This document shows positions 7,305 through 62,447 of a stretch of DNA of 64,000 nt, piece after piece. Numbering within the stretch: position 1 is the stretch's first letter; every line of letters starts with the position of its first letter. This DNA is from a virus (Duplodnaviria > Heunggongvirae > Uroviricota > Caudoviricetes): the IMG/VR virus record IMGVR_UViG_3300043406_000147. One strand, 5' to 3'. The notes below the pieces were generated by a model. That model saw only the letters and a program-made list of their open reading frames with translations. It made no database searches and was not told the DNA's origin. Position numbers and translations under genes: made by a program.

Positions 7305-7763
7305 ATGCTTCAAACGAATCTTCTCGAACTCTCCGGCTTTCTGAAATCGAAAGTCGTCAACATGGGTGATCTGAAAAAGGCCACCAGCATCGCGCTCGGG
7401 ATTGGTCTGAGCTTTCGGCTCCAAGTCCCAACGTCCGATGGTGGGCATGTGGCTCACTACGACAGCGTGCTGGTCCACAGTGCGCTGAAGATGATCAGTG
7501 ATTTCAACGAAACGATCCTCGTGGACGTTGATCTGGCTGCCCGCACTTGCCGATCGTATTGGTTGATGCGCTATGCAGCAGCGACTCGCAATCCCACCGG
7601 CATCGCATCCCCGAATGCGAAGGGGTCTTTCACCGAAAAGATCTTCGGAATGCACCACTACGCCATTCCGGAAGTGCAGGATTTTCTGGAAAACAACTCC
7701 GAGGTGATGGTGGTCATCATCAATCGGATGTCCATGGTGCTCGGCCCCGCCGAACAAGTCTGA
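7305..7763 (+). CDS. hypothetical protein
   Basis: A 152-aa ORF with an AGGTGA RBS. Confidence 0.45.
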   Translation: MLQTNLLELSGFLKSKVVNMGDLKKATSIALGIGLSFRLQVPTSDGGHVAHYDSVLVHSALKMISDFNETILVDVDLAARTCRSYWLMRYAAATRNPTGIASPNAKGSFTEKIFGMHHYAIPEVQDFLENNSEVMVVIINRMSMVLGPAEQV

Positions 7764-7872
7764 TCGCTCGCTGAGTTCAGCTGAGGGTGGGGAAACCCAC
7801 CCTCTATGCTGTATTGTAAAAATGTACAGACATGTACTATTTAGAGGTACATCAACTCGTTAAGAGGAACTC

Positions 7873-8457
7873 ATGGAACTCGATCAATCGTACGTGGAAG
7901 ACTATCCCATCATCGAAGTTGCTGCGACGATGAACGTCAGCATGACGCGCGTTCAAGAACTCGTAAAGCAACGGCGCCTGCACCGAGGGCCGGACCGGCG
8001 CCAAACGGCATGCATCACTCGGGCCAGCCTGGTCACCTTCTTTGGGGGTGAGGAGGTTTTCCAGACAAAATTTCTAGAGATCAGAAAGGCGCAGATCGAG
8101 AAGGCTGGGAAGTATTCTCGTGGATCGAACAGACATCCTGTTCTTACGGCTCCCGGCGCTGCGCTGTTATGCGACCTGAGACCCTCTGACATTCACCTGC
8201 TTTGTGAGAAGGGCGAGATCCCTCACTACAAAACCGCTGGCAGGCATCGGCGCATAAGCCTGATCGACCTGGAGAAGTGGCACCTCCTGACTCGCGGTAA
8301 GCACATATCCCCTCTGGTTCTGGCACACTTGCAGGACTGGATCTCGGCTCCGGCTGAGGAGGCTCAGAAAACTAGCACGAGTATCTGTGACAAGTGTGCA
8401 GATGTGGATGTTCGTGAGGCGTACGCCGACTACACGTCTCCAAAAGCTACGGAGTAA
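7873..8457 (+). CDS. DNA-binding protein with two tandem excisionase/MerR-type helix-turn-helix domains
   Basis: Two repeats: (EVAATMNVSMTRVQELVKQRRL) and (IPHYKTAGRHRRISLIDLEKW), the second matching the excisionase-family HTH consensus. AGAGGA RBS. A TACTAT promoter-like motif lies upstream. Confidence 0.5.
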   Translation: MELDQSYVEDYPIIEVAATMNVSMTRVQELVKQRRLHRGPDRRQTACITRASLVTFFGGEEVFQTKFLEIRKAQIEKAGKYSRGSNRHPVLTAPGAALLCDLRPSDIHLLCEKGEIPHYKTAGRHRRISLIDLEKWHLLTRGKHISPLVLAHLQDWISAPAEEAQKTSTSICDKCADVDVREAYADYTSPKATE

Positions 8458-8584
8458 ATATTTATAGGTACTTCTATGGTATAGGAAACTAGCCGCGTGC
8501 GGCCACTTGCATCTCCCTGCGGGGTATTGCCGGAGGCCGCAGAGTCGTCTAGTAGCTGGGTACTACTCCAGCAAGGGGAGATCC

Positions 8585-8914
8585 ATGACGCCAATAAGAC
8601 CCCTGTCTGTTCTTCGGCGGTTCAAGTCAAGGTTAGGAGCCACATTGAGAGTTTTAGTAGTAGACGGCTTTTGCAGAAGTATCGCACGAGCAGTGAGAAC
8701 GATCTTGATGGATGCTTGTTCTTTGTTTGCAGAGGTGGACCAAAGTACACGGTACACCTTCACTGGCACCTTGTGGGCTGGTGATTGCATGGGGCGGTCT
8801 GAGACCGACATGCGCTGTAATCGGCAAGCGTTGAACGCTCGCTTGGATATGGTCGGAATCCGGTATCCAAAACCAATGACGCCACATTGTCACTGGTCAT
8901 GTAGCCGATTGTGA
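8585..8914 (+). CDS. small Cys/His-rich hypothetical protein (start uncertain)
   Basis: ATG at 8585 preceded by an AAGGGGAG RBS. The region 8460-8950 has competing ORFs in several frames, so coding status is uncertain. Confidence 0.3.
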   Translation: MTPIRPLSVLRRFKSRLGATLRVLVVDGFCRSIARAVRTILMDACSLFAEVDQSTRYTFTGTLWAGDCMGRSETDMRCNRQALNARLDMVGIRYPKPMTPHCHWSCSRL

Positions 8915-9007
8915 CGATCTAAGCGATCAAACAACCACAAAAGGCACGGGTGGTGCGGGTTCGTCCCGCACCATTTATGCTGTTAGTTCCTACTTCAGGA
9001 GAACGAC

Positions 9008-11425: not shown

Positions 11426-11473
11426 GCAGAAGGGGGTGTCTTTCGGCACCCCTTGAAACAAGGAGCGAGCAAA

Positions 11474-11920
11474 ATGAGACAGTATTGCGTTGGGCACTCT
11501 CCGGAATTCTTGGCCAATGACCTGAAAGCATTTCTCGATCGAACTGACTGGAGCCTTCGTCACTGTGGTCGACCAGAAGTCATGTTTGAAGTAGGGTTTG
11601 TTCGGGAGTATTACCTTGGGACAAACAACCCAAAATGGTTGGCTACGATTGGTGGTGTCTGGGGATCTTGCCCTTATTGGGGTCCTGGCTTTGCCTACCT
11701 CAACAAATCTGGTAGCGACAGCTTTCTACCATGTCCACTCAAGCAACAGCCGGACACTCACCTGGTGATTGATGACCCCGATTTCAAAACGGACACAGAA
11801 AGAAAGATCAACAATTTGAATGAACTTCTCGGTGCGCGCCGAGGAATCATCACCCACTGGTTTCTACGAGGGGATGCCAGCATCACGCAGACAAAGATGT
11901 TTTTGGAGTTGTCTCGCTGA
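11474..11920 (+). CDS. hypothetical protein
   Basis: ATG at 11474 after an AAGGAG RBS. The TTG at 11453 in the ORF track is rejected. Confidence 0.5.
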   Translation: MRQYCVGHSPEFLANDLKAFLDRTDWSLRHCGRPEVMFEVGFVREYYLGTNNPKWLATIGGVWGSCPYWGPGFAYLNKSGSDSFLPCPLKQQPDTHLVIDDPDFKTDTERKINNLNELLGARRGIITHWFLRGDASITQTKMFLELSR

Positions 11921-11934
11921 AACATCGACGATGC

Positions 11935-11980
11935 AGCATAATAGCCGGGCTGAGCCCGGCTATTATGACGTTTCTTTTTT
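11935..11980. terminator. bidirectional rho-independent terminator between converging genes
   Basis: Hairpin GCATAATAGCCGGGC-TGA-GCCCGGCTATTATG followed by a T-run. Confidence 0.6.
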
Positions 11981-11985
11981 TTTTC

Positions 11986-33529: not shown

Positions 33530-33566
33530 CGGCATAAATGGGAGGCCGGGCCTCCCATTTATGTTG
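33530..33566. terminator. bidirectional terminator, member of the conserved palindromic repeat family
   Basis: CGGCATAAATGGGAGGCCGGGCCTCCCATTTATGTTG lies between a + gene end and a - gene end. Confidence 0.6.
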
Positions 33567-36997: not shown

Positions 36998-37149
36998 GCG
37001 AAACTGCGCTCGGCTCTGAGTAAGTAGAGTGTGTCTGGGGTGAAAGCCCCAGACACACTGCTATGCTGTTTCTTTTTTGCTAAGAAAATGGTATGCCCGC
37101 ATGGTTTTTTATATCATGCTTTTTTTGTTCTGTTCAGGAAGGATTCATT

Positions 37150-39489
37150 GTGGCTGATCCGATTTATGTAGATGTCAGTAAAGTCGAAACTAAAATGACG
37201 ATGGTGGCTGATGACAAAGTGTTATTCAACCGAGCAGGTGCTGGTCCATTTCAGGCAGCGCTGAGTGTGTTAGCACTGGCAATCATTCCAGCCATTCAAT
37301 CAGGGTTCGATGCCAGGTATGCTGCGAAAGGAACCGCGACAACATCACCAGGAGTTCTTACTGTTGGCGGAGTTTCCACGACGGGTAGCGTTGTCAAAAC
37401 GAACTCAGTGACAGTTGTCGAGAACGTGGTGAACACGTCCACTGCACTCGGTACAAGCAACCCCGTCACAGCCGCGTTGACAGGCACGCGCACATTCAAC
37501 GCAACCAACCTGACTGAGTTTGATCTGATCCCGTTTGCAACGTTGCAGCCGGGAGATGTGGTCAACATCTTTCACAACGCTATACCGTACAACCGGATTA
37601 TTCGTATATCGGATTCGGGCACGGCAGCAAACCCCATCATCATCAACGGGGTGACCAACGCCAATGGGGATCGACCGGTTATCAGTGGTGCCAATGCACG
37701 TGTGACACCGGGTTCCATGCCAGGAGGCACTGCAAACATCTTCAACAGCACCTCAACAGCATCTTGGGCATACCGAGAAGGAACGTCGCTTGTAGGTACC
37801 GCCTGTCGCGTCACAGACCCATGGAACGCGTACCGGCCGAAGCACATCCAGTTCAAGAACTTAGAAATCGTCGGTGCTGTCAAAGGCAACTACTTCTACG
37901 ACAACTTCGGCACAGTGCATGCTTGGGATCAAGCCAGCGGTTTCCGTGTGCAAGAAGGCGAAGGCATCATTGGAGATAACCTGGTCATCCACAACAATGA
38001 TTTTGGTTATTTCACGCAAGCCTACAACGGGCTGCCCAACTACGCGCCTCTGAATTGCGTGCTCCGCAATTCTCGCGTTTACGATTGTGGAATGGTCGGT
38101 CGCTCGTCTGAGCATGGCGCTTACATTCAAGGCATCAAGCCCATTTTGGAAAACAACTGGTTTGGTCCGAACAAGATCGGCAGCTTAGGCTCCACGATCA
38201 AATTGCGCGCAGCAGGGTTCATCATTCGTCACAACTGGATGATGTCTTCTGATGGTCGTCTGTTGGACATCGTTCAAACAGAAGATAGCAATGACGGTGT
38301 CCGTGTGGACGCATCGTACGGCTACGGTCACGTGTACGGGAACGTGATCACAAATCTCTGGTCCGCCACCGTCGTCGGTGCTTCATTCCCCATTCACATC
38401 GGTGGGGATAACGCAGGTGAAGATAAAACGGCAACTGAATGGATCGGGGGTGTTCAAGTACCGACCAACACCCTCACTGATGCTGACTTGACTGGTCCGT
38501 CTACAGGGATCGTTGCAAAGTACATCCACACGGTGTACTTCTACGACAACACGGTGGTATTCAAGAGCGATTCCTCTCAAAAGTGGAGGTGTGCAATATT
38601 TGATCTCTCCCTCTCAGGGACCGCTACCAATCCACGCACAAAGGTGTGGGAGTGGAACAACGCATTCCGCATGATCGGCACCACTCGTTGGTCGCGTGTG
38701 CGCAACGCAGGCCATGTCGCACACATGGGCGGATCTGTCTGGGATGTGGATGGTGATTTGTTCGACGCGCACGAAGAAGCCAAGGCAGATCGTTACTCAT
38801 TCTCAGGAACACCGAAAGATGGTGTTTTGGGACTGGTGACTGACACATGGCTGCCCACAGCTCAAACGTTGACTCATGCACGCCTGAGCACGCCTCCAGC
38901 GGGCTTGCCTGCGACGTTTGATTCCACGCTCGTGGCGAATCGACAAATTGGTACTGCCACAAACTCACTGGCAACGCGCAACCCCGTTGCAGTCGGAGCG
39001 TTGGATGTATCGAGTGCTACTTCAACCCCAGTCAGTCGGGTTGAAACCACAACAACATTGGAAAGCGCACCAGCTGTCACAGCCGACACGCTCATCAAAG
39101 ACGAGACTTCTTTCAGCCTCACCAATGGCTCTAAAAAGGCCGTAGCGAGCTTTAATGTCGACTATACCAGTGGTTGCTCATCTTTAACATTTGAAGCGCT
39201 TGTAGCCGTTTCTGATGCGAATGGAATCCAGCAAACGATTCAACAACGTGTGGATGTGGTGATCTTGGTTGCCAACTCTGTGATCACTGTCAAGAGTCAA
39301 TCTGCTCCATCGCTCAGCTCCTGTCTTGCAGGCACACTGACCCTGGCAATGGTGACAGTGGTTTACAACAAAACTGTCAACTTGTGCTTGACGCCCACGT
39401 CCTCACTCACACCAACTTCGATTGGTGGATATGTGGCACTCAGCGCAGCGCTCGGTAGCCCAGTCACTGGGCTGGCACTGCTGACCTAA
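37150..39489 (+). CDS. tail fibre/tailspike-like protein with a pectate-lyase-type beta-helix
   Basis: GTG at 37150 after an AGGAAGGA RBS. Internal repeats such as NLVIHNNDFGYF and SEHGAYIQG are typical of right-handed beta-helix depolymerase/tailspike domains. A Thr/Ser-rich C-terminus. Confidence 0.45.
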   Translation: MADPIYVDVSKVETKMTMVADDKVLFNRAGAGPFQAALSVLALAIIPAIQSGFDARYAAKGTATTSPGVLTVGGVSTTGSVVKTNSVTVVENVVNTSTALGTSNPVTAALTGTRTFNATNLTEFDLIPFATLQPGDVVNIFHNAIPYNRIIRISDSGTAANPIIINGVTNANGDRPVISGANARVTPGSMPGGTANIFNSTSTASWAYREGTSLVGTACRVTDPWNAYRPKHIQFKNLEIVGAVKGNYFYDNFGTVHAWDQASGFRVQEGEGIIGDNLVIHNNDFGYFTQAYNGLPNYAPLNCVLRNSRVYDCGMVGRSSEHGAYIQGIKPILENNWFGPNKIGSLGSTIKLRAAGFIIRHNWMMSSDGRLLDIVQTEDSNDGVRVDASYGYGHVYGNVITNLWSATVVGASFPIHIGGDNAGEDKTATEWIGGVQVPTNTLTDADLTGPSTGIVAKYIHTVYFYDNTVVFKSDSSQKWRCAIFDLSLSGTATNPRTKVWEWNNAFRMIGTTRWSRVRNAGHVAHMGGSVWDVDGDLFDAHEEAKADRYSFSGTPKDGVLGLVTDTWLPTAQTLTHARLSTPPAGLPATFDSTLVANRQIGTATNSLATRNPVAVGALDVSSATSTPVSRVETTTTLESAPAVTADTLIKDETSFSLTNGSKKAVASFNVDYTSGCSSLTFEALVAVSDANGIQQTIQQRVDVVILVANSVITVKSQSAPSLSSCLAGTLTLAMVTVVYNKTVNLCLTPTSSLTPTSIGGYVALSAALGSPVTGLALLT

Positions 39490-39493
39490 CCGT

Positions 39494-39540
39494 CAGCCTA
39501 ATTGGAACAGGACAAACTACTCCCGCAAGGTACTGTAGTC
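39494..39540 (+). terminator. long hairpin terminator after the tail-fibre gene
   Basis: GGAACAGGAC...GTCCTGTTCC has a 10-bp perfect outer stem. It is followed by TATGCTG. Confidence 0.5.
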
Positions 39541-39828
39541 GTCCTGTTCCACCCTCTACCTATGCTGCCTGATCTTACGGCATAAAGGCACCCCTTTTAG
39601 GGTGCTTTCTTACGATAATTTTGATGTATCATAGTTATTAGAAAAATAATAACTTTTTATCGTGTATTCATATAGGATGACTACAGTACAGTAGGGTAAG
39701 GAAGAAGTGTTGACTACGTCAAAGAAATAGAAGTCGCTCCGCTACGCTCCGACTCCAAAGAAAGAAAAAGAAAGAAGTGATATTACTAAAGTAATATAGA
39801 CATAAGGATCGGGGGGTGAAACCCCCCT

Positions 39829-39847
39829 CTTACTTACTTACTTACTT
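39829..39847. repeat. (TTAC)n microsatellite in an AT-rich non-coding island
   Basis: CTTACTTACTTACTTACTT follows directly after the GGGGGGTGAAACCCCCC hairpin (39811-39827). Confidence 0.7.
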
Positions 39848-40163
39848 CATATGATTATAGTAAAAATAAAATAAATATAACAGTAGAGTAGAGATCTTTC
39901 TTTTTTGCTTCTTTTTTCTTTGAAAAGAAGCAACTACAGATCTATCGAAACCTACAACTTGAGAGGAAAGAATCCTCTCAATGTACATACGAAGATCTAC
40001 TACGGTAGATGAAAGAATAAGAATTCTTTCAAAAGTAGATACAACAAAACCTACCACCTCATAGAACCGAGCTATAAGCTCGGAATAAATGAATCAAACG
40101 TACTCTTAGGGCGCGGTGGCGAAATTGGCAAATATGATTAGAGGTGAGAATAATACTTGATAG

Positions 40164-40194
40164 ACGCCATTTGAGGCGTTTTTTATGCCGCATG
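40164..40194 (+). terminator. rho-independent terminator with a TTTATGCCGCAT tail
   Basis: ACGCCATTTGAGGCGT followed by a T6 run and ATGCCGCAT. Confidence 0.55.
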
Positions 40195-40252
40195 TACGAA
40201 TGGGTCAAGTAATCGATTGAGGCGCTCATTTGAGCGTTTAAAGGGATTTAAA

Positions 40253-40771
40253 GTGGATACTACGACAAAAGACACCACGGGTGATGGATTCAATGACACA
40301 GGGACGATCAGGTTCGATGTGATGATTCCGCCTCATGACCCAAGGATAGACACACCGCTGTATATCCGAACGCGCAAGCTGCTGATCACACGGGACAAGA
40401 TGTGCTTTGTGTGCCAGAGAACTGCGAGACAATCAGGTGCTCCTTTGGAAGCACATCACCATCCCATCATGCGTTCAATGATGAACATGGTAGATTGGCC
40501 GAGGTTTATTCGCCTAGCTAGGTTGGGTCACTGGGGACCTAACGTGCAGGCTTTCAACTGGGACAAGTTCAGTTTAGATGACGTTGTTAAGTTTGTGGAT
40601 GATATGCGCTACAACGGAATGCTGCTTTGCGCGACGCACCACAGGGCAATGAATGCTGGGATACACGCATTACCGTACCCTCTCTTTTTAGCACAAGCGT
40701 ACGGCTTGGAAGGCTATCAATTTAGCAAAACACAAACACTGGTACATGCAGATGACGATCCTGTAATTTGA
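40253..40771 (+). CDS. HNH endonuclease
   Basis: CFVCQ...EAHHHP and a later CATHHRAMNAGIH form a CxxC...HH...N...H HNH signature. The GTG start at 40253 is chosen by RBS AAAGGGA; the TTG 40217 and ATG 40322 alternatives are possible. Confidence 0.5.
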   Translation: MDTTTKDTTGDGFNDTGTIRFDVMIPPHDPRIDTPLYIRTRKLLITRDKMCFVCQRTARQSGAPLEAHHHPIMRSMMNMVDWPRFIRLARLGHWGPNVQAFNWDKFSLDDVVKFVDDMRYNGMLLCATHHRAMNAGIHALPYPLFLAQAYGLEGYQFSKTQTLVHADDDPVI

Positions 40772-40894: not shown

Positions 40895-41560
40895 ATGTCT
40901 TCCGATTTTCTTGATACCAGTGTTGTTCGTTCGATTAACCTGGATGCTGTTCGTGCTGGTGAACAACCTGATGTTTCGGTCAATTTCAAAAATGCAGCCT
41001 TTATGCAAGGCTCAATGGGTGCGCTGTCCATCAAATTCGAAAAGGGCTGGATGATCCTGGAGGATGAATCGTTCTACGAGGGGGTGCATGACGGTACCAG
41101 AATCAGAGTCAAGCCGCCCGTAGCGCAAGTTGTTCGGCCAATCAACTTTGTTGTTGAAGAGCGAGACTTCACTGAAGCCGGTGGTGATTTGTGGTCGGTT
41201 GTGGTACAGATCGACCCGTATCGGCAGCCAGTGGCTTTTTCTCGCATAGGTCAGCGTTACGAGCGATTCTTGCTCAACTCAGAAGTCGTTGCGTTCGATT
41301 CGAACGTCTGCGATTTAATCATGGACAAGAAGGTAGTTGAGACCAGTTTGCCCGACTCTCGAATTCGGCTCCTTGAGAAGCCGCAAGATGGCAAGAAGCC
41401 GTTGATTCTGAAACCTTTCATCAAGTTTTACGCCAGCCTCGATGTGCTCCCGCAGCTTGGGCGTTGCCTGGAAAAATGCAGGAAAATGAATGGAGATGAA
41501 CCGCCCCTGGCATCGGCCAGCATCGAAGTAGAAACTCTGAAATACCAACTGGTTTCGTGA
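40895..41560 (+). CDS. triplicated family A member 1 (FEKGWM(I/V)LE(D/N)E motif)
   Basis: TAGGAG RBS and the motif SIKFEKGWMILEDESFYEG. Confidence 0.55.
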   Translation: MSSDFLDTSVVRSINLDAVRAGEQPDVSVNFKNAAFMQGSMGALSIKFEKGWMILEDESFYEGVHDGTRIRVKPPVAQVVRPINFVVEERDFTEAGGDLWSVVVQIDPYRQPVAFSRIGQRYERFLLNSEVVAFDSNVCDLIMDKKVVETSLPDSRIRLLEKPQDGKKPLILKPFIKFYASLDVLPQLGRCLEKCRKMNGDEPPLASASIEVETLKYQLVS

Positions 41561-41613
41561 ACGAAGGGGTGATGCGTCACCCCACAGCATCCCACATTAC
41601 TTAGGAGAACGAA

Positions 41614-42258
41614 ATGCCAGTGTGGCAGCATCTCGGTGTCAACTACCCAAGCGTTCAGGCGGCGGAAGAAACACCCATGAACGAAGAAGCGAACCGCTTT
41701 CCGGATACCGTATATCTGACGCATGATCCGAAAAGACCCCTTTGCGTCAAGTTTGAAAAGGGCTGGATGGTTCTGGAAGACGAACGTCGCTACCCCAACA
41801 ATCTTGGCGAAGATAAAAAACCACCGATCATTAGTGCGATTCATCCGGTTGAACTTAGAATTCTTGACCAGGATTCGGAAGACCGGGAGCGTGGTGAAAT
41901 TGTGTTCGAGGTGCTTTTCAGAGAGTACGTGGGGATACGAGCTTGTCGGGTGGATGAAAGTTATTTGGATGCAGGCTCTATTCCAGCCCCTCGCAGAATC
42001 GTCGATAGCCCAATAGTGCTTGCTGATTTTATCCGGCACTGTTGGCGAGAAACCATTCTGCCCGCCATGGGCGTGAAGATTTTACACTACACCGACCCTG
42101 GCGAACGAGAAACCAGAAAGAATTCTTCGCGTGAACCGCGTTTGATTCTGGTCGTGAAGCAGCGTTACGCTAGTCAGATTGCTTGTGCAATTCGCAAGCA
42201 CAGCACCGTAAATATTTTTAGCGAATGGGAGCACGCTGAGCACTTTTATAAGAAGTGA
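41614..42258 (+). CDS. triplicated family A member 2
   Basis: Motif CVKFEKGWMVLEDERRY...VFEVLFREYVGIRACRVDESY. TAGGAG RBS. Confidence 0.55.
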   Translation: MPVWQHLGVNYPSVQAAEETPMNEEANRFPDTVYLTHDPKRPLCVKFEKGWMVLEDERRYPNNLGEDKKPPIISAIHPVELRILDQDSEDRERGEIVFEVLFREYVGIRACRVDESYLDAGSIPAPRRIVDSPIVLADFIRHCWRETILPAMGVKILHYTDPGERETRKNSSREPRLILVVKQRYASQIACAIRKHSTVNIFSEWEHAEHFYKK

Positions 42259-42306
42259 AACCCCTACCGGTGATTACCGCCACTTTGAAATCACAAAGGA
42301 TTCTCC

Positions 42307-42900
42307 ATGAGTCAAACCGACTACCGCGCAATTTCTTTCTTCAATGCAGTCACCCTCCCGACCGATCCTGATATTGAACTCACCATTCGATTTGAGAAGG
42401 GTTGGATGGTCCTTGAGAATGAACACGTTTATGACGTGTTGGATCGGGGGGTTGTTCGAAAAATGAAAGACCCCATTCGCTTGTTCATTCATCCGACCGA
42501 TTACTTCGTGGTCGATCAGGATGCTGATGAATATCAAAAAGGAATTGAAGTATCACAAGGGGTGGGGATCTTTGAAGTCGTTTTCAAACCGCACGTTGGG
42601 CTGACGGCTTGTCGTGCGGATGAGTCATATTTTCAATTGGGACCTATTACAACACCCGGTCACATTGTGCGGGATGTTGTTCAGTTGAAAACCATGATTC
42701 AAGAAGGCAAGCTGATGGAGGCTATCCTCCCAGAAGCACGTGTGAACGTGTTGTTCTTACCGAAGGATTCCGTGCTTGGTCCGCTTTATAGACCATCCCG
42801 CAGAGATCCGCGACTGGTGATGTACGTGAAGAATAACTACGCTGGCGTTGTCTCTAACGCAATTGACCATCATCAGAAAATCAACATCTACGAAGCGTAA
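42307..42900 (+). CDS. triplicated family A member 3
   Basis: Motif TIRFEKGWMVLENEHVY...IFEVVFKPHVGLTACRADESY. AAGGA RBS. Confidence 0.55.
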   Translation: MSQTDYRAISFFNAVTLPTDPDIELTIRFEKGWMVLENEHVYDVLDRGVVRKMKDPIRLFIHPTDYFVVDQDADEYQKGIEVSQGVGIFEVVFKPHVGLTACRADESYFQLGPITTPGHIVRDVVQLKTMIQEGKLMEAILPEARVNVLFLPKDSVLGPLYRPSRRDPRLVMYVKNNYAGVVSNAIDHHQKINIYEA

Positions 42901-42938
42901 CTGCATAACCATCGCTTCAGCGAAAGGAACATCTAGAA

Positions 42939-43370
42939 ATGAACGAGAAAATCAAAACCGGATATGCGTGGGCGTCACCCGCGCTTGTGAAGTTCGTCCG
43001 CTCAAAAGCAACGAACGATTTCATGGAGCTACAAAAACTCACCGATCGCGAGTTTGGCACTATCATCCAGTACCCTGAGATTTCGGGGTACGATAAATTG
43101 GGCTCGCATTGCCACCCTGTTGCAATGAAAGGTCCGAATTTCCCACCCCATGTCGATCCGCGAATTATTGTCGGAAACCGGCCGTGGCGCGCGTTTTTCT
43201 GGGTTCTTGATACACCAGAAAGCGGGCAGGAAGTGCATCTCCAAGTGGGGAATCGTTGCATTGGTTTGTGCAAAGGAGATTACGCTGTCTTCGATGCGGA
43301 ACTGATGCACTCGGCACAATCCTCGCGGGTCTGGTACGGTATCAGCGCCCAATTTGAAATCGTGAAATAA
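42939..43370 (+). CDS. small cupin/2OG-Fe(II)-oxygenase-like protein (weak)
   Basis: The order PHVDP (HxD) ... ELMHS (His) ... RVWYGIS (Arg) fits the double-stranded beta-helix oxygenase facial triad; the call is speculative. Confidence 0.35.
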   Translation: MNEKIKTGYAWASPALVKFVRSKATNDFMELQKLTDREFGTIIQYPEISGYDKLGSHCHPVAMKGPNFPPHVDPRIIVGNRPWRAFFWVLDTPESGQEVHLQVGNRCIGLCKGDYAVFDAELMHSAQSSRVWYGISAQFEIVK

Positions 43371-43382
43371 GGAAATTTTGTC

Positions 43383-43880
43383 ATGGTTCTCACTTCTCTT
43401 GAAAAGGGTGGAATATCCCCCTTCGACACGTATCCCGAACTGAATACGATTTGGTCGCCCGAGCATACGGCTTTAGCCAGGGCTGCAACTGACGACTGGC
43501 TGCAGACCGATGATTCTGGGGAAATCTGCCTGATCGAATGCATTGCGGATACAGGTGTGGTTATTGCTGGAATCACTGGTTGGTGGCCGTTAGACAAAAC
43601 CAGAGCCGGCCTGCGCTGGCACGGCGTCGTCGAGCAATACAGAATGAAACGCATCTCACGCGGTGCGATTCGCAGAATGTGCAACACCTCTTTGTTGGAC
43701 TTTGACCAACTCGTTGAAGTCACGATGAGTGATGCGCCGGTCGATCACTTTCTCGCTGTAGGCTTCGTCGAGGTAACAGATGAAAAAGAAAAAGAAGAAC
43801 TGTTCGACTTAGTCGGTGGTTATGGTCACCGCTTTCTCACGCTGGATGTGAACATCTACCGCAACCGCAATTTTCTCTGA
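43383..43880 (+). CDS. hypothetical protein
   Basis: A 165-aa ORF with an AAGGA RBS. Confidence 0.45.
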   Translation: MVLTSLEKGGISPFDTYPELNTIWSPEHTALARAATDDWLQTDDSGEICLIECIADTGVVIAGITGWWPLDKTRAGLRWHGVVEQYRMKRISRGAIRRMCNTSLLDFDQLVEVTMSDAPVDHFLAVGFVEVTDEKEKEELFDLVGGYGHRFLTLDVNIYRNRNFL

Positions 43881-44681: not shown

Positions 44682-45454
44682 CTGCAATCACTAGCGCAAT
44701 CGCGCACAAGTACACCTCCGGCGAGTCGCACTCCGACGACTACATGAAATTCAAGATGCTGGCAAGTAGTGTCTTCATGGATCTTGTCAAATCAGTGTTT
44801 GGTACTTTTGGTGAGTACCTGGAGATCATGGATGTGGATCTCTCATCCACCCGCGGTACCGTGAAGCTCAAGCTCATCAAATCCCCGGATGGGTTTGATG
44901 CCTTTTGTATGGCCTTTGCTCTGATGAAGGCGTCCGGCCTACCTGATGAAAATGATATCGGAGAAGAAGTATGGTGGCGGCAAGTCCACCTCCTCACTAT
45001 TCAGATGAGGCAGTACCGGGAAGCGAAGATAATCCTTTCCAACAAACTGTACTTCTTCAATGAGCGATTAGACGCCGCGCTCTCAGCGGGCAAACATGCG
45101 CTTATGCAGAAGTACATGGAACAGGCTGAACAACAGGGGCTTCGAGAAGTGGTGCGAGATAAAGTAGCTGGCCGCCTCGGCTTATTTTACAGCATCTTTC
45201 AAGACCATCTGGATCTGACGGCTACAAAGCTGGCAATGTCGGGCTGGGATCGGGGTAGTCATCGTGTCCCAATGATCGCCTTTTACCAGTTCAACGAGAT
45301 CACGATGCAAATGAAGGATCAACCAGCAAGCCACGAAGACTTGTACATCGCGTATTGCGAGTGCTTGGTCCGCCTGACAGGCATCGACCCTTCGCAACCA
45401 ATCGATATTCGTCAGATGAATCTGAAGAGTATTAGCCGTTACCACGCTGCCTAA
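44678..45454 (+). CDS. triplicated family B member 2
   Basis: Motif DGFDAFCMAFALMKASGLPDENDIGEEVWW. AAAGGA RBS; the start overlaps the upstream stop. Confidence 0.5.
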   Translation: MTAITSAIAHKYTSGESHSDDYMKFKMLASSVFMDLVKSVFGTFGEYLEIMDVDLSSTRGTVKLKLIKSPDGFDAFCMAFALMKASGLPDENDIGEEVWWRQVHLLTIQMRQYREAKIILSNKLYFFNERLDAALSAGKHALMQKYMEQAEQQGLREVVRDKVAGRLGLFYSIFQDHLDLTATKLAMSGWDRGSHRVPMIAFYQFNEITMQMKDQPASHEDLYIAYCECLVRLTGIDPSQPIDIRQMNLKSISRYHAA

Positions 45455-47436: not shown

Positions 47437-47818
47437 ATGGGAAGAAGGTCGCCAAGGCGGGTACGAGAAACTCACCATCTTCAGCCTCAAGAAGTTAAAG
47501 TGTGATCTTCACTTGATCCGATTAAAGCCATTTTGTTGCGTGCCTTGGCACAAGGACCCTGTTGCTGATGGGTTTGAGCATCACCGAATCAACTTGGATC
47601 TGATTCGCCCGTCTAAAGGAGGAGTGACAAAGATCGCAAAACATGAAAGGCCGTTAGCTACCCATGTCGCCCCAAGATTGTACCGATTTCGACCCGATTT
47701 GCAATATCACGAGGTCAGCACGGTTTGTGACCCAAATGTGAGGGGTGAATCACTCCTCATCCTGAGCTTTGGATGGCTCAAGAAAGTTAAGCCACATGTC
47801 ATCGGAAGATTCCGATGA
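47423..47818 (+). CDS. hypothetical protein (possible degenerate 2OG-oxygenase-like fold)
   Basis: ATG at 47423 after an AGGAGG. Contains WHKD...EHHRINLDLIR. Confidence 0.4.
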   Translation: MPIFKWEEGRQGGYEKLTIFSLKKLKCDLHLIRLKPFCCVPWHKDPVADGFEHHRINLDLIRPSKGGVTKIAKHERPLATHVAPRLYRFRPDLQYHEVSTVCDPNVRGESLLILSFGWLKKVKPHVIGRFR

Positions 47819-47863
47819 CATGTGGATGTACGACGACTGTGACGATTAAGAAAGAATACTGCC

Positions 47864-48762: not shown

Positions 48763-48772
48763 AAGGACAGCC

Positions 48773-49066
48773 ATGAACCACAGACGAACCATCTCCATCG
48801 CAGCGAGCCGGCTTATTCGCAATGTCTTTGTTGACAAATGTAAATACAGCACATCTGCTTTTTCCAAAGGTAATGTGCTTCACAAAGCAAAAAAGCACAA
48901 ACTGCGTAGAAAGGTCCTTCAACTTGCCAATCACCGCCTAGAGAAAAAAGGGCTACCTTCTATAGAACAACAAATCAGCAACAACTGGTGGGCTGAAATG
49001 GTCGCCGATTATGATGGTGATCCGATCCCGCACGGTGGTTGGTTTGTTGAAATCCCGACGACGTGA
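48773..49066 (+). CDS. small basic hypothetical protein
   Basis: A 97-aa ORF. Confidence 0.35.
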   Translation: MNHRRTISIAASRLIRNVFVDKCKYSTSAFSKGNVLHKAKKHKLRRKVLQLANHRLEKKGLPSIEQQISNNWWAEMVADYDGDPIPHGGWFVEIPTT

Positions 49067-49090
49067 TCGCCCAGCTTAACAAAATAGCAT

Positions 49091-49116
49091 TCCAAAAAAC
49101 TACAATCACATATAAC
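49091..49116 (+). promoter_or_regulatory. candidate promoter ATTCCA-N16-TATAAC, sharing a 16-nt identical core with 1587-1602
   Basis: TACAATCACATATAAC is identical at 1587-1602 and 49101-49116. Both copies are preceded by ATTCCA at the same spacing, and both lie upstream of gene starts. Confidence 0.4.
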
Positions 49117-49184
49117 AAGAGAGAGTGCTGGGGCTATTCCCAGCACCGAACCGCTCACCACGAGCTAACCCGAAGGATTTTGAA

Positions 49185-53874: not shown

Positions 53875-53942
53875 ATAAGTCCAAGCAGGTAGAATAAATG
53901 GCGGGTATGAGCCCCGCCATTTATGCCGCATCAGGAGAAAAC

Positions 53943-54530
53943 ATGTCTGACAGTTGGTTTTTAATTGATGATCTTAAGCGGTTTGCCGAACTGGCCTGTG
54001 CAAAAGCGAAGTACGCGCCGTGCTCAGGCAGTAAACATAAAGAGGATTTTTATTTTTATAACTACAGATCGCAATCGCATACGTTTTTCTGGTGTACCAT
54101 CACCAGCGGAAACTTTTCGAGCTACGATCAAAGTCTTCTGTTAGGTGATTTTCAATCATGGTTCCCAGAGGGAAAACCAGGGATGCTTCTAAAAACCTCT
54201 CATCGGCATGAAGATGTACAAGCTGGTGCAGAAAGCATGATTCGACTTTGTTTGATCATGCGCCGGTTCATTGAAGAAACGATGAGTCTGACCAAAGGAA
54301 ATACCAAGGTTCAGCTCTACTGGTGCTCACCATGGCATTTCATTTTTGGTCTTCAAGGCCATAATGGTGCTTCTTACGAAAGGAAGGAGGAGAACATATT
54401 GGCAGCCTACGAAAGGTTGCGAGTCGAAATCGAGCCCAATGTGCAAGACGCACTAAAGCGACGTTTTATTGATGTGCAGTATCTTAATGGAGACATCACC
54501 CACGAACGTTTTTACCCACTAGGAGAGTAA
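53943..54530 (+). CDS. hypothetical protein
   Basis: ATG at 53943 after a CAGGAG. The ATG at 53898 lies inside the repeat hairpin. Confidence 0.45.
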   Translation: MSDSWFLIDDLKRFAELACAKAKYAPCSGSKHKEDFYFYNYRSQSHTFFWCTITSGNFSSYDQSLLLGDFQSWFPEGKPGMLLKTSHRHEDVQAGAESMIRLCLIMRRFIEETMSLTKGNTKVQLYWCSPWHFIFGLQGHNGASYERKEENILAAYERLRVEIEPNVQDALKRRFIDVQYLNGDITHERFYPLGE

Positions 54531-54535
54531 CCCCA

Positions 54536-55720: not shown

Positions 55721-55939
55721 ATGAGTATCCCGACTCCAAAGAAAGAATTTCGCATCAGATTCAAAGGGAACAGTGGGGCGCGATTCGATCAGTTAGTCAA
55801 AGAAACAGGAGGCACCGAAGAGCAAGTCTTTCTCAACGCCCTCCGGTTGTACGAGGAGTTCATTCGACTCCACAAAGCCGGCCACAAGATCTACTCCGAT
55901 GAAACCGGGAAGATCGCCCAGGTAAACATTTTCGACTGA
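55721..55939 (+). CDS. small ribbon-helix-helix-like protein
   Basis: A beta-alpha-alpha pattern: KKEFRIRFKG then ARFDQLVKETGGTEEQVFLNALRLYEE. AGAGGTGA RBS. Confidence 0.35.
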   Translation: MSIPTPKKEFRIRFKGNSGARFDQLVKETGGTEEQVFLNALRLYEEFIRLHKAGHKIYSDETGKIAQVNIFD

Positions 55940-56536: not shown

Positions 56537-57223
56537 GTGAAAACGTATATCGACAATGCACGAAAAATCCTCGCAGAAGGTCAACTGCGTGGTAACCGTA
56601 CCGGCATGCCTGCCATTTCCACATTCGGTCTTCGAATGGAGTTCAACCTCCTGAGCGGTTTTCCGCTGCTCACGACGAAGCATGTTCGTCTCAAGTCCAT
56701 CTTCACAGAGCTGAAGTGGTTCTTGCGCGGTGACACCAACATCGGGTTCCTCAAGGACAACGGCAGCTCAATCTGGGATCAGTGGGCAGACGCTGACGGT
56801 GAAGTTGGTCCGATGTACGGTTTCCAGTGGCGCAACTGGGTGCGCTGGGGAGGCCAGCCTTCTGTCGACCAGATCCAGGAGCTGCTGAAGAACCTGACGG
56901 AGCGCCCGTACTCCCGTCGGCATTTGGTGACGGCATGGAACGTGGAAGATCTCCCTGACGAAAGCATCACCCCCCAGGAGAACGTGGCGAAAGGAAAGAT
57001 GGCCCTGGCGCCGTGCCACGGCACTTTCCAGTGCTACGTCGATGAGATGGATCTCGCCCAGCGGGATCAGTGGGCAATGCTGCACGGTGTGATTTACAAC
57101 GATACCGTCTGGATCGAGATGACCAAGACTCAAGCGGGTCTGGGCTTCCTCGACGGAATGGGAAAGTTTTTTGATGAGCACAACGTGCCCACCAAGCGAC
57201 TGAGCCTGCAGGTTTATCAGCGT
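56537..57223 (+). CDS. thyA: thymidylate synthase, exon 1
   Basis: GTG start after a GAAGGA. Matches ThyA through ...MALAPCHGTFQCYV...LSLQVYQR. Carries a 47-aa in-frame insertion compared with canonical ThyA. Confidence 0.65.
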
Positions 57224-57524
57224 TAATCAGTAGCGCCCCTGGTAAGTAATTATCCAGGTGAAGAATCTCTCTAAACGGAGAACGTCCCTTCGTATTGGAA
57301 AAAAGCGAATGGATAACTAACCGTGCTAAGTCTGCGCTGGTCCTTAAGATCAGGCGTAGTAAAAGCCTAACGAGCATCCCGCAAGGGAGTATGGGACAAG
57401 CGTCTCAGAAACGAGAGAAACCCGACCATTCAGTTGAGGGTTGTGATGTGCTCTGTTCCACCAGTAATGAGTGGCGGGTGTCTAAGCACACCGGGTATGC
57501 CTAGCGAGCATACTGGACAGTAAG
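57224..57524 (+). ncRNA. group I self-splicing intron (no ORF) interrupting thyA
   Basis: Exon 1 ends in T and the intron ends in G (omegaG). The intron contains ATCTCTCTAAACGGAGAAC and CCGTGCTAA, which resemble the T4 td-type P3-P4 core. The reading frame resumes exactly at SADFPVGVPFNIASYALL. Confidence 0.55.
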
Positions 57525-57821
57525 TCTGCAGATTTTCCAGTGGGTGTTCCGTTCAACATCGCGAGCTACGCCCTGCTCACCGAGATGCTGGCCCACTCGC
57601 TGTGCATGGCACCCGGCACGCTGATCTGGATTGGCGGGGATTGCCACATCTACGAGAATCAGATCGAGGGGATTCGTGAGCAGATCACGCGTGACCCCAA
57701 GGCACTACCCCTTCTCAAGATCAATCCGGACAAGCGAAACCTGTTCGAAATTGATTTTGACGACATCACGTTGATGGGCTACGATCCGCACCCGGTGATC
57801 GTTTACCCGGTGGCGAAGTAA
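57525..57821 (+). CDS. thyA: thymidylate synthase, exon 2
   Basis: VGVPFNIASYALLTEMLA...GDCHIYENQ...GYDPHPVIVYPVAK is the ThyA C-terminus. Confidence 0.65.
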   Translation, partial: SADFPVGVPFNIASYALLTEMLAHSLCMAPGTLIWIGGDCHIYENQIEGIREQITRDPKALPLLKINPDKRNLFEIDFDDITLMGYDPHPVIVYPVAK

Positions 57822-62410: not shown

Positions 62411-62447
62411 CGGCATAAATGGGAGGCCCGGCCTCCCATTTATGCTG
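62411..62447. terminator. conserved palindromic repeat / bidirectional terminator
   Basis: CGGCATAAATGGGAGGCCCGGCCTCCCATTTATGCTG. Confidence 0.6.

Follow-up and report, generated by a model that had tools for sequence, protein, structure and literature searches.

What does a phage keep in some 760 nucleotides (nt) of AT-rich DNA that hold no gene? The question arises at positions 39490-40252 of the 64,000-nt stretch of DNA that we analysed, here called the window, which belongs to the IMG/VR virus record IMGVR_UViG_3300043406_000147 (Caudoviricetes). An earlier, sequence-only reading had picked out this island beside an HNH endonuclease gene and had offered a replication origin, a packaging site, a cluster of small RNAs or a scar of HNH-mediated insertion as its role. 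Here, we describe the comparison of the island with its relatives, which points to a nearly invariant core (39661-40034), and we weigh the explanations for that core, of which a transcribed and structured RNA element seems to us, tentatively, the best.

The window is part of an 86.9-kb metagenome contig of the Joint Genome Institute (JGI) and comes from an uncultivated phiKZ-like jumbo phage, recognised by PHROG matches to phiKZ-type virion proteins, internal head proteins, DNA polymerase and ribonucleotide reductase. Among cultured phages, the closest is Burkholderia phage FLC9, with no more than 38.6% amino acid (aa) identity in a 993-aa virion protein. The island is flanked on the left by the gene for a 798-aa protein (37093-39489) and on the right by the HNH endonuclease gene (40253-40771). 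Every gene between ~36 and 62 kilobases (kb) is on the + strand, and gene orientation does not switch at the island.

The gene-free island and its conserved core

The AT-rich, gene-free island beside the HNH gene is real. No other gap between called genes in the window is as large, and its GC content falls to 0.24-0.40 against a mean of 0.513 (standard deviation 0.055) for the whole stretch. Nowhere else does the value in 200-nt windows fall below 0.30, which bears out the earlier remark that the composition of the island is far from that of its surroundings.

The island is also non-coding. Each of the six frames has 9-16 stops with several of TAA, TAG and TGA among them, so that no recoding of a single stop codon yields an open reading frame (ORF). 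Those ORFs of 22-71 aa that can be drawn in the island are disrupted by indels in two related contigs (L002 and L016, introduced below). The earlier reading had named a conserved coding frame as the finding that would overturn it; comparison with relatives revealed none, and the pattern of change by codon position expected of such a frame is not seen, the invariant part having too few substitutions for periodicity. We also agree that tRNAs are lacking: ARAGORN finds no tRNA gene in the whole window, and neither tRNA nor transfer-messenger RNA (tmRNA) is matched in Rfam at E<=10. More generally, no Rfam 15 family matches the island at its gathering score or at E<=10, and the families covered include group I/II introns, GOLLD, ROOL, HEARO, CsrB/RsmZ, CRISPR-DR and 6S. 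The best sub-threshold scores are 12-22 bits, compared with thresholds of 34-100.

What the island does contain is hairpins, at a density beyond chance. There are seven perfect ones with stems of 7-11 base pairs (bp), counting stems of at least 7 bp, against 0.42 +/- 0.61 in 500 dinucleotide shuffles (maximum 3) and a density of 1.4 per kb elsewhere in the window. As RNA, the island is predicted to fold far more stably than shuffled sequence whichever strand is taken, with a z of -6.1 for the + strand and -7.4 for the - strand.

The island and the HNH gene occupy the same place in six metagenomic contigs of the same phage group. One of these (L017) is near-identical to the window, four (L001, L002, L003 and L018, here the L001 group) show ~3-5% gene divergence, and L016 shows 11-16%; the seven aligned sequences, including the window, represent only three independent lineages. 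In this alignment, the core differs at 2 of 374 positions (0.5%) from the L001 group, and at 5 of 373 (1.3%), with a further two indel columns, from L016. The divergence of the surrounding sequence is as follows:

3' end of the 798-aa gene: L001 group 3.4%, L016 10.8%
HNH gene: L001 group 5.3%, L016 16.5%
Third codon positions, 798-aa gene / HNH gene: L001 group 7.8% / 13%, L016 27% / 42%
Codon positions 1+2, 798-aa gene / HNH gene: L001 group 1.2% / 1.5%, L016 2.7% / 3.8%
Left non-coding flank (39490-39627): L001 group 8.7%, L016 24.6%
Right flank (40090-40162): L001 group 12.3%, L016 11.0%

The rate of change in the core is reduced ~20-fold. Measured against L016, the Fisher p is 1.7e-36 for the core versus third codon positions, 9.5e-17 versus the non-coding flanks and 0.07 versus codon positions 1+2. 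The right-hand part of the core (module R, 39894-40034) has no difference in 141 nt across the three lineages, and all of the L016 core substitutions, together with one of the two single-base deletions (39694), fall in the left-hand part (module L). Length polymorphism of the (TTAC)n tract, which the earlier reading had thought worth looking for, does not occur: the tract is equally long in all seven sequences.

Divergence of the core rises with lineage distance as that of the flanks does, which fits an evenly reduced rate better than a single recent transfer. Since the neighbouring variable segments are AT-rich as well, base composition is no explanation for the conservation. Judged from the alignment, the core is under very strong purifying selection, and with such constraint the island counts as neither junk nor a scar; its core is a functional non-coding element.

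The idea of a scar left by HNH-mediated insertion is contradicted on each count that we could compare. The core differs by 1.3% from L016 where the HNH gene differs by 16.5%, HNH homologues occur without an island, and the comparable island of a more distant contig (L004, described below) has no HNH gene nearby. We therefore reject both a scar and a flank that moves together with the HNH gene: the core is constrained; the HNH gene diverges normally, its differences from L016 (3.8% at positions 1+2 and 42% at position 3) showing the ordinary pattern of protein-level selection; and homologues that are 51-57% identical sit in tightly packed gene rows without an island in four other phage contexts. 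The HNH gene is probably an independent neighbour that lies outside the element, and it has its own TATG motif 3' of the right terminator.

The identification of the gene itself holds. Its ORF (+ strand, GTG start) matches PHROG 8048 at E 8.5e-17 and is 29% identical to the AR9/PBS1 HNH protein. It fits the codon usage of the phage poorly, to the extent that a simple codon-usage caller kept only its last 75 codons, which is consistent with a recent foreign origin; diverse phages encode homologues, and so do bacterial genomes, among them Pandoraea and a deltaproteobacterial metagenome-assembled genome. The closest homologue outside the family (60% aa identity) is encoded by L019, which derives from a phage of 32% GC that shares the terminator signature described below. 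The sequence upstream of that gene (L019:1-290, where the contig is truncated on the 5' side) is non-coding and has a GC content of 18.5%; it includes palindromes, a hairpin with (ATAC)3 after it, and a GC-rich terminator with TTTTTTGCCGCA. The similarity of this stretch to the island is not significant, as 10 of 300 shuffles score as high.

The left-hand neighbour is more obscure. The 798-aa protein has no PHROG or Pfam match and no relative in IMG/VR or GenBank phages, and its homologues are few among 5.8 billion proteins. In L004 (64% aa identity in the 798-aa protein) and L005 (58%), the island is missing from the syntenic site: the next gene begins ~40 nt past the stop of the homologue, and none of the genes further downstream is related to those of the window. 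The syntenic region of FLC9 is densely coding, likewise without an island. Absence from otherwise syntenic relatives had been proposed as a finding that would speak against a function, and it is indeed observed in L004 and L005; what it demonstrates is a lineage-specific element, not a lack of function.

The island forms the border of a hypervariable block, between conserved virion genes and strain-variable gene content. Directly 3' of the HNH gene, the window and L017 have a 2.5-kb block (40902-43418) with four ORFs of unassigned function, where L001, L002 and L018 have ~30 nt instead. A second indel of ~460 nt (44788-45244) follows. By this comparison, the two indels mark a strain-variable accessory region.

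Layout, terminators and a promoter-like element

The hairpins, polypurine runs, (TTAC) tract, AT-rich repeats and terminator described in the sequence-only reading all lie where it had placed them. The hairpin that it gave a 10-bp stem, followed by TATGCTG, is present together with the motif; the stem is 11 bp long. From left to right, the features are the following:

39503-39513/39541-39551, + strand: hairpin H1, TGGAACAGGAC/GTCCTGTTCCA, an inverted repeat with an 11-bp stem and a 27-nt loop
39561-39567, + strand: TATGCTG, a terminator/late-promoter-type motif; TATGCCG in L016, still within the consensus
39578-39606, - strand: left boundary terminator; CGGCATAAA at 39578-39586 precedes the hairpin GCACCC-CTTTTA-GGGTGC at 39588-39606
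39633-39654: AT-only hairpin H3, AGTTATTA-GAAAAA-TAATAACT, partly conserved; three changes in L016, two of which weaken the stem
39661-39893: conserved module L; fold z -1.1 / -1.7, the module as a whole not being unusually structured
39710-39722: H4, a small hairpin in module L, TTGAC-TAC-GTCAA
39735-39751: GC-rich segment of module L with CGCTCCG twice, 10 nt apart
39757-39777: polypurine tract AAAGAAAGAAAAAGAAAGAAG, in Tandem Repeats Finder (TRF) 2 x AAAGAAAGAA; holds a perfect 19-nt homopurine mirror repeat
39780-39797: H5 of module L, ATATTAC/GTAATAT
39811-39827: H6 of module L, G6T/AC6, GGGGGGTGAAACCCCCC
39829-39847: (CTTA/TTAC) x 4.8 tract found by TRF, directly following H6
39848-39882: most AT-rich stretch, ~35 nt and ~90% AT, the GC minimum of the window
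~39865-39879: AT-rich run ATAAAATAAATATAA within the most AT-rich stretch
39855-39888, + strand: promoter-like element; TTATAGT at 39855-39861, 13 nt, ATATAAC at 39875-39881, N6 and a candidate start at G39888
39894-40034: conserved module R, invariant; fold z -6.6 (+ strand) and -6.1 (- strand)
39905-39933: H7 of module R, 11-12 bp
39934-40008: extended interrupted rod of ~75 nt formed by the pairing of two AGATCT palindromes and the bases beside them, with H8 at its tip
39959-39981: H8, TTGAGAGGA-AAGAA-TCCTCTCAA, 9 bp
39995-40010: H9, an alternative hairpin, ATCTAC-TACG-GTAGAT; its + strand loop is a C(UACG)G tetraloop
40010-40031: H10, a 9-bp hairpin
40035-40062: variable linker, 33% divergent in L016 and 7.1% in the L001 group
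40067-40083 (conserved 40063-40089): H11, CCGAGCT-ATA-AGCTCGG, with 1 difference in 27 in L016
40090-40162: variable right flank, 11-12% divergent in both other lineages
40163-40193, + strand: right boundary terminator; hairpin 40164-40179 followed by TTTTTTATGCCGCAT, extendable to 7 bp with one G.U pair

H1 lies 3' of the stop codon of the 798-aa gene and outside the conserved core. In L016 its loop is replaced and 18 nt longer, and its basal pair has changed from T-A to C-G, a compensatory exchange that keeps the stem. In the consensus fold, H11 can be enclosed by a longer helix of CCTACCACC.. with ..GGGCGCGGTGG, G.U pairs included.

The edges of the island carry a signature that recurs throughout this phage. 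TATG[CT][CT]G directly follows a GC-rich hairpin at ~20 gene-end sites in the window, with bidirectional pairs at convergent genes, and of all 7-mers in the window, TTATGCC and its neighbours show the highest specificity for intergenic sequence; the motif is also found in L004, L005 and L019. The phiKZ terminator motif is a stem-loop followed by TTAT, BCCYCCCCHWWDGGGRRGGBYTTATKYYGT (PMC10914365), and the heptamer overlaps the TATG element of the phiKZ late promoter (PMC7598289). From this likeness we read TATGCTG (39561), CGGCATAAA (39578) and TTTATGCCGCAT (40182) as the ordinary terminator signature of the phage, a GC hairpin with TTATGCYG, which the sequence-only reading had not recognised as such. 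Among the example sites are 1551, 7805, 26743, 29964, 33536/33560, 53922 and 62417/62441, where the hairpin ends in ..ATT and TATGCYG follows. Near-identical bidirectional copies of AATGGGAGGCC[C/G]GGCCTCCCATT stand at the convergent junctions 33536-33560 and 62417-62441, 29 kb apart.

Both boundary sites have the form of a phiKZ-type terminator: GCACCC-TAAAAG-GGGTGC with CTTTATGCCGT on the - strand (39606-39578), and ACGCC-ATTTGA-GGCGT with TTTTTATGCCGC on the + strand (40164-40192). Read on the - strand, the hairpin at 39588-39606 is followed by CTTTATGCCG, a motif that L016 keeps as TATGTCG; on the + strand the same hairpin, with a TTTCTT tail, also ends the 798-aa gene. In L016, both boundary motifs are altered only within the consensus. 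With a - strand terminator at the left edge and a + strand terminator at the right, transcripts from the AT-rich part would be stopped on both sides. The sole L016 change in the right terminator, C -> T, gives G.U on the + RNA and A.C on the - strand, which is a modest hint of a plus-strand RNA. The TATG of the right terminator may also serve as promoter of the HNH gene.

Within the most AT-rich part, the two halves of the promoter-like element are motifs with a marked intergenic distribution. All four window copies of TTATAGT are between called genes, as are all three copies of ATATAAC, the latter all on the + strand. A fused form, TA[CT]A[AG]TCACATATAAC-N6-GAG, is found 60-75 nt upstream of (small) genes at four sites:

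1587-1609 of the window
49101-49123 of the window
L001:16055-16077
L005:12909-12931

The two window copies share an identical 16-mer, and the L001 copy, the homologue of the site at 49101, changes only one base of the element and two of the N6 spacer. Promoters of the virion RNA polymerase in phiKZ-related phages have an extended conserved AT-rich element, six nucleotides and a G at the start (PMC5312081). The fused element has this format and may be the early promoter of this clade. In the island, the halves stand on the + strand 13 nt apart compared with 3 in the fused form, that is, with one extra helical turn, and the N6 is AGTAGA. Of the five L016 core substitutions, two hit the N6 spacer (39886 and 39887) and a third hits position +6 (39893); one of the two in the L001 group is likewise at 39887. 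This suggests, as a lead, a + strand start at G39888 and an RNA of ~300 nt up to the terminator at 40164-40190.

An analogous island occurs in L004, at 7710-8503. This is a 790-nt AT-rich, ORF-free island with seven perfect hairpins, 4.4 kb downstream of a 776-aa gene in the same variable region. It consists of a polypyrimidine half with several CCUCC motifs and then a polypurine half with repeated GCAGTTAG-like motifs, and it has no Rfam match. Between the two islands, nhmmer and blastn found nothing significant, and MAFFT/RNAalifold gave no usable alignment. A degenerate pattern made from the block that both share returned only false positives in ribonucleotide reductase coding sequence. We take the L004 island for an analogue, and possibly for a distant homologue.

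We also see an exact 18-nt match on the same strand, CCGACTCCAAAGAAAGAA, between the core (39749-39766) and 55730-55747 (search E 3e-4). The latter positions are codons 4-9 of a 72-aa ORF (55721-55939) that has no Pfam match. A minus-strand transcript of the island would be perfectly complementary to the initiation region of the 72-aa mRNA. The 72-aa gene is missing from L001, where the 18-mer of the core is nevertheless conserved.

What the core may be

The explanation that we put first, with confidence a little short of even, is that the core encodes one or two structured non-coding RNAs in a terminator-insulated transcription unit. The central AT-rich promoter of phage type (TTATAGT ... ATATAAC-N6-G39888) would fire rightward and yield an RNA of ~300 nt that comprises H7, the H8 rod, H10, the variable linker, H11 and the intrinsic terminator at 40164-40190. 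From 39661 to 39885, the left module could give a second RNA that ends at the G6/C6 hairpin, or could be read leftward to the - terminator at 39606-39578. In support of an RNA, the perfect stems extend into longer, nested and interrupted helices, namely the ~75-nt H8 rod and the H11 helix with G.U. The tetraloop of H9, the G.U pair in the right terminator and the stem-preserving change in H1 also look RNA-like, and both the L004 island and the terminator-delimited small RNAs of phiKZ (PMC10914365) add to the case. For its role, our preference is an accessory (host-interaction) RNA that acts in trans, as a regulator or by binding protein, because the element borders a hypervariable region of accessory genes and distant relatives lack it at the syntenic site. 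Among the roles proposed earlier, the cluster of small RNAs is the one that fits best, given the insulating terminators, the promoter-like element, the lack of an ORF and the nested helices. The part of that proposal that we infer is the RNA as the selected product, together with the strand that is read, the start point and the role.

Several observations weigh against such an RNA. Both strands fold equally well, which favours neither strand, nor RNA over DNA cruciforms. In the consensus fold, no pair is changed on both sides; the core is almost invariant, and covariation has no power there. Loops, linkers, the microsatellite and the AT-rich spacer are kept as strictly as the stems, which is unusual for selection on RNA structure only. 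The split match of the island to the contiguous promoter form has 10 of 16 identities, in a comparison with few reference sites whose expression class is unassigned. Homology with the L004 island is weak: in a Smith-Waterman comparison, 39664-39734 aligns with L004 8121-8201 at a z of ~3.3 (1 of 200 shuffles scored higher), a hairpin being kept in this 70-80-nt block with one G-C -> T-A exchange. Finally, searches of GenBank phages (blastn), plasmids, IMG/VR (exact patterns) and GTDB genomes (two core patterns) brought up no sequence relative of the island outside its own lineage. The JGI metagenome contig collection also has no match to the island, and this collection evidently lacks the source samples.

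A bolder possibility, which we find doubtful and still worth stating, is that the core is a new class of large structured RNA or a divergent RNA pair whose whole sequence, beyond its helices, is read by partners, or else the first recognisable replication-initiation region of phiKZ-like phages. Either, if true, would mean that a non-coding element constrained like rRNA sits within a hypervariable accessory region.

A replication origin acting at the DNA level was among the roles first proposed, and a promoter beside an AT-rich unwinding element could serve one, with the hairpins as cruciforms or initiation signals. At T4 and T7 origins or in ColE1, a persistent RNA-DNA hybrid primes replication, and the same might happen here. 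An AT-rich unwinding element is present next to the promoter-like element (39848-39882), and the perfect homopurine mirror repeat, the complementary pyrimidine tracts and the G6 run would suit such a hybrid. The stems are all perfect Watson-Crick palindromes that are equally stable on both strands, and strictly conserved spacers suit a densely read DNA element. We nevertheless regard an origin as improbable, and find no support for it or for a packaging site, as a skew extremum and iterons are lacking and no initiator or terminase gene lies next to the island. At 39.5-40.3 kb, neither the cumulative GC skew nor the cumulative AT skew shows an extremum or a change of slope, which is weak evidence because skew here follows the direction of transcription; the GC-skew maximum is on a broad plateau at 43.8 kb. 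The direct repeats are two-copy only (11-28 nt, 71-92% identity), GATC is not enriched (four sites against 3.6 expected at the window rate), and no initiator, helicase or primase gene is adjacent. The element is also missing from the syntenic site of L004, L005 and FLC9, and gene orientation is unswitched. To our knowledge, neither a replication origin nor a packaging signal has been defined for phiKZ-like phages, and in the literature we found no description of a jumbo-phage origin or conserved non-coding RNA of this kind.

We rate as a shade less probable a hub of transcription control without a functional RNA, that is, an insulator between the late structural operon and the variable, possibly early, block. 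It would account for the terminator signatures at both edges, for a possible bidirectional terminator at the G6/C6 hairpin (on the - strand, hairpin + GATCC TTATGTC), for the promoter-like element and for the position between conserved virion genes and the strain-variable block. Yet other intergenic regions of 60-160 nt manage a terminator and a promoter in under 150 nt, and 375 invariant nucleotides with at least nine different palindromes would call for many distinct proteins to bind them. Moreover, a TATG motif past the right terminator already belongs to the HNH gene.

It is very unlikely that the near-identity of the core is due to recombination having recently carried a short segment from one co-circulating strain to another, instead of to selection on function. 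In favour of this reading, the edges of the conserved block are fairly sharp (~39628-39661 and 40034-40089), and the setting is a recombination-prone variable region beside a homing-type endonuclease. Such spread would have to involve the same short tract in three lineages, and it would not be expected to leave a divergence of the core that scales with lineage distance (0.5% vs 1.3%), an adjacent HNH gene that is not homogenised (16.5% in L016) and remaining core substitutions that are clustered rather than spread.

Smaller again is the chance of a decoy RNA array, in which the hairpins would mimic host RNA ligands as solitary CRISPR repeats do when they act as RNA anti-CRISPRs. Several different short perfect hairpins lie in a promoter-to-terminator unit here, and H9, AUCUAC-UACG-GUAGAU, resembles what we take to be the UCUAC..GUAGAU stem of Cas12a repeats. 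This likeness was noticed post hoc and spans 11 bases; neither CRISPR-DR nor any other Rfam family matches even at E<=10, and a hairpin of this kind is lacking in the L004 island. H9 lies within the 18-mer GATCTACTACGGTAGATG, which occurs by chance in unrelated IMG/VR coding regions. RNA anti-CRISPRs as such do exist in phages (PMC10651486).

Least credible of all is a translated micro-ORF, for example a 30-35-aa basic peptide (39905/39919-40012) with the U-rich leader TTTCTTTTTT in front, as this leader stands 12-28 nt before start codons at 37069, 49824, 58964 and 16100: the peptide would start at TTG without a Shine-Dalgarno sequence and overlap three hairpins, coding cannot explain zero change at ~47 third positions, indels in L002 and L016 disrupt the remaining small ORFs, and JGI calls a gene in one of the three contigs compared, on the opposite strand.

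Some further candidates were tried and rejected. Terminal inverted repeats of a miniature inverted-repeat transposable element or other transposon were not found. A diversity-generating retroelement template would call for a reverse transcriptase and a repeat of the 3' end of the upstream gene, and there is neither; a group I intron is dismissed by the fact that the upstream gene ends where its homologues end. The four GGA motifs in 380 nt are about the number expected, which goes against a CsrA/RsmA sponge, and an Hfq/Crc sponge of the CrcZ type is disfavoured by the few AANAANAA motifs and the lack of support from Rfam. There is no overall enrichment of TAGAGTAG or of CACATATAAC with a mismatch, and the intergenic enrichment of TAAGTA is due to multi-frame stop clusters at gene ends. 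A long-range pairing of 39530-45 with 39674-89 is broken by two substitutions in the L001 group.

We made a few observations elsewhere in the window. The T-rich decamer TTTCTTTTTT has nine copies, eight of them on the + strand, including those at 37069, 49824, 58964, 16100, 11971, 57863 and 5550. Most copies are 12-28 nt upstream of start codons or just past terminator hairpins, and some of the genes that they lead have no recognisable Shine-Dalgarno sequence, such as that for the large subunit of ribonucleotide reductase at 58986. Thymidylate synthase is split between two ORFs, 56537-57226 (PF00303 positions 1-179) and 57540-57821 (positions 174-265). The 313 nt that separate them (57227-57539) contain no ORF and look like a self-splicing intron of the T4 td kind; no Rfam intron family matches them, even at E<=1. 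L001 appears to carry thymidylate synthase directly after a Band_7 gene. Lastly, five stretches of 420-660 nt in which a simple codon-usage caller finds no confident gene are not AT-rich (8458-9007, 11426-11985, 47437-47863, 48763-49184 and 53875-54535) and probably hold genes with atypical usage or starts.

Comparison with known systems

The non-coding functions of jumbo phages are almost unexplored, and only a handful of small RNAs, none with a known role, have come from phiKZ. The island adds a testable handle: a single-copy, gene-free block with clear boundaries and a candidate start that diverges less than codon positions 1+2 of its neighbours. It also brings annotation rules for the clade, in the form of the terminator signature and a candidate early-promoter consensus.

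Like the origins of T7 and T4, the island has a promoter(-like) element beside its most AT-rich DNA, and its purine/pyrimidine asymmetry could stabilise an R-loop. Those origins are ~100-200 bp long and are not hairpin arrays; the island, for its part, shows no skew signal or positional conservation in relatives. GOLLD and ROOL resemble it in being phage-carried, highly conserved, multi-hairpin RNAs of several hundred nucleotides. They differ in having multi-way junctions and pseudoknots, whereas the island is AT-rich, consists mostly of simple perfect hairpins with purine/pyrimidine linkers, matches no Rfam family and, unlike them, is not located beside tRNA genes.

RNA anti-CRISPRs are small phage hairpin RNAs with a promoter of their own (PMC10651486). 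The island, by comparison, has many different hairpins and matches no repeat family. The promoter-early stem-loop (PeSL) cassettes of T4-type phages are short, with many repeats of the same sequence, and are found in hyperplastic regions. As in these cassettes, a promoter and stem-loops border strain-variable blocks of small genes; unlike them, the hairpins of the island are each unique, and the block is single-copy in 64 kb.

In phiKZ itself, intergenic small RNAs and others derived from 5' untranslated regions, delimited by terminators, have been mapped by ONT-cappable-seq (PMC10914365). They measure 70-200 nt and were seen experimentally, whereas the unit in the island would measure 0.4-0.55 kb and is known from sequence alone; blastn against phages gives no sequence similarity between the two. 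We know of no report of comparable conservation for the phiKZ small RNAs. What the two have in common is the type of phage, the terminator signature (hairpin + TTATKYYGT) and an organisation into short, ORF-free promoter-terminator units.

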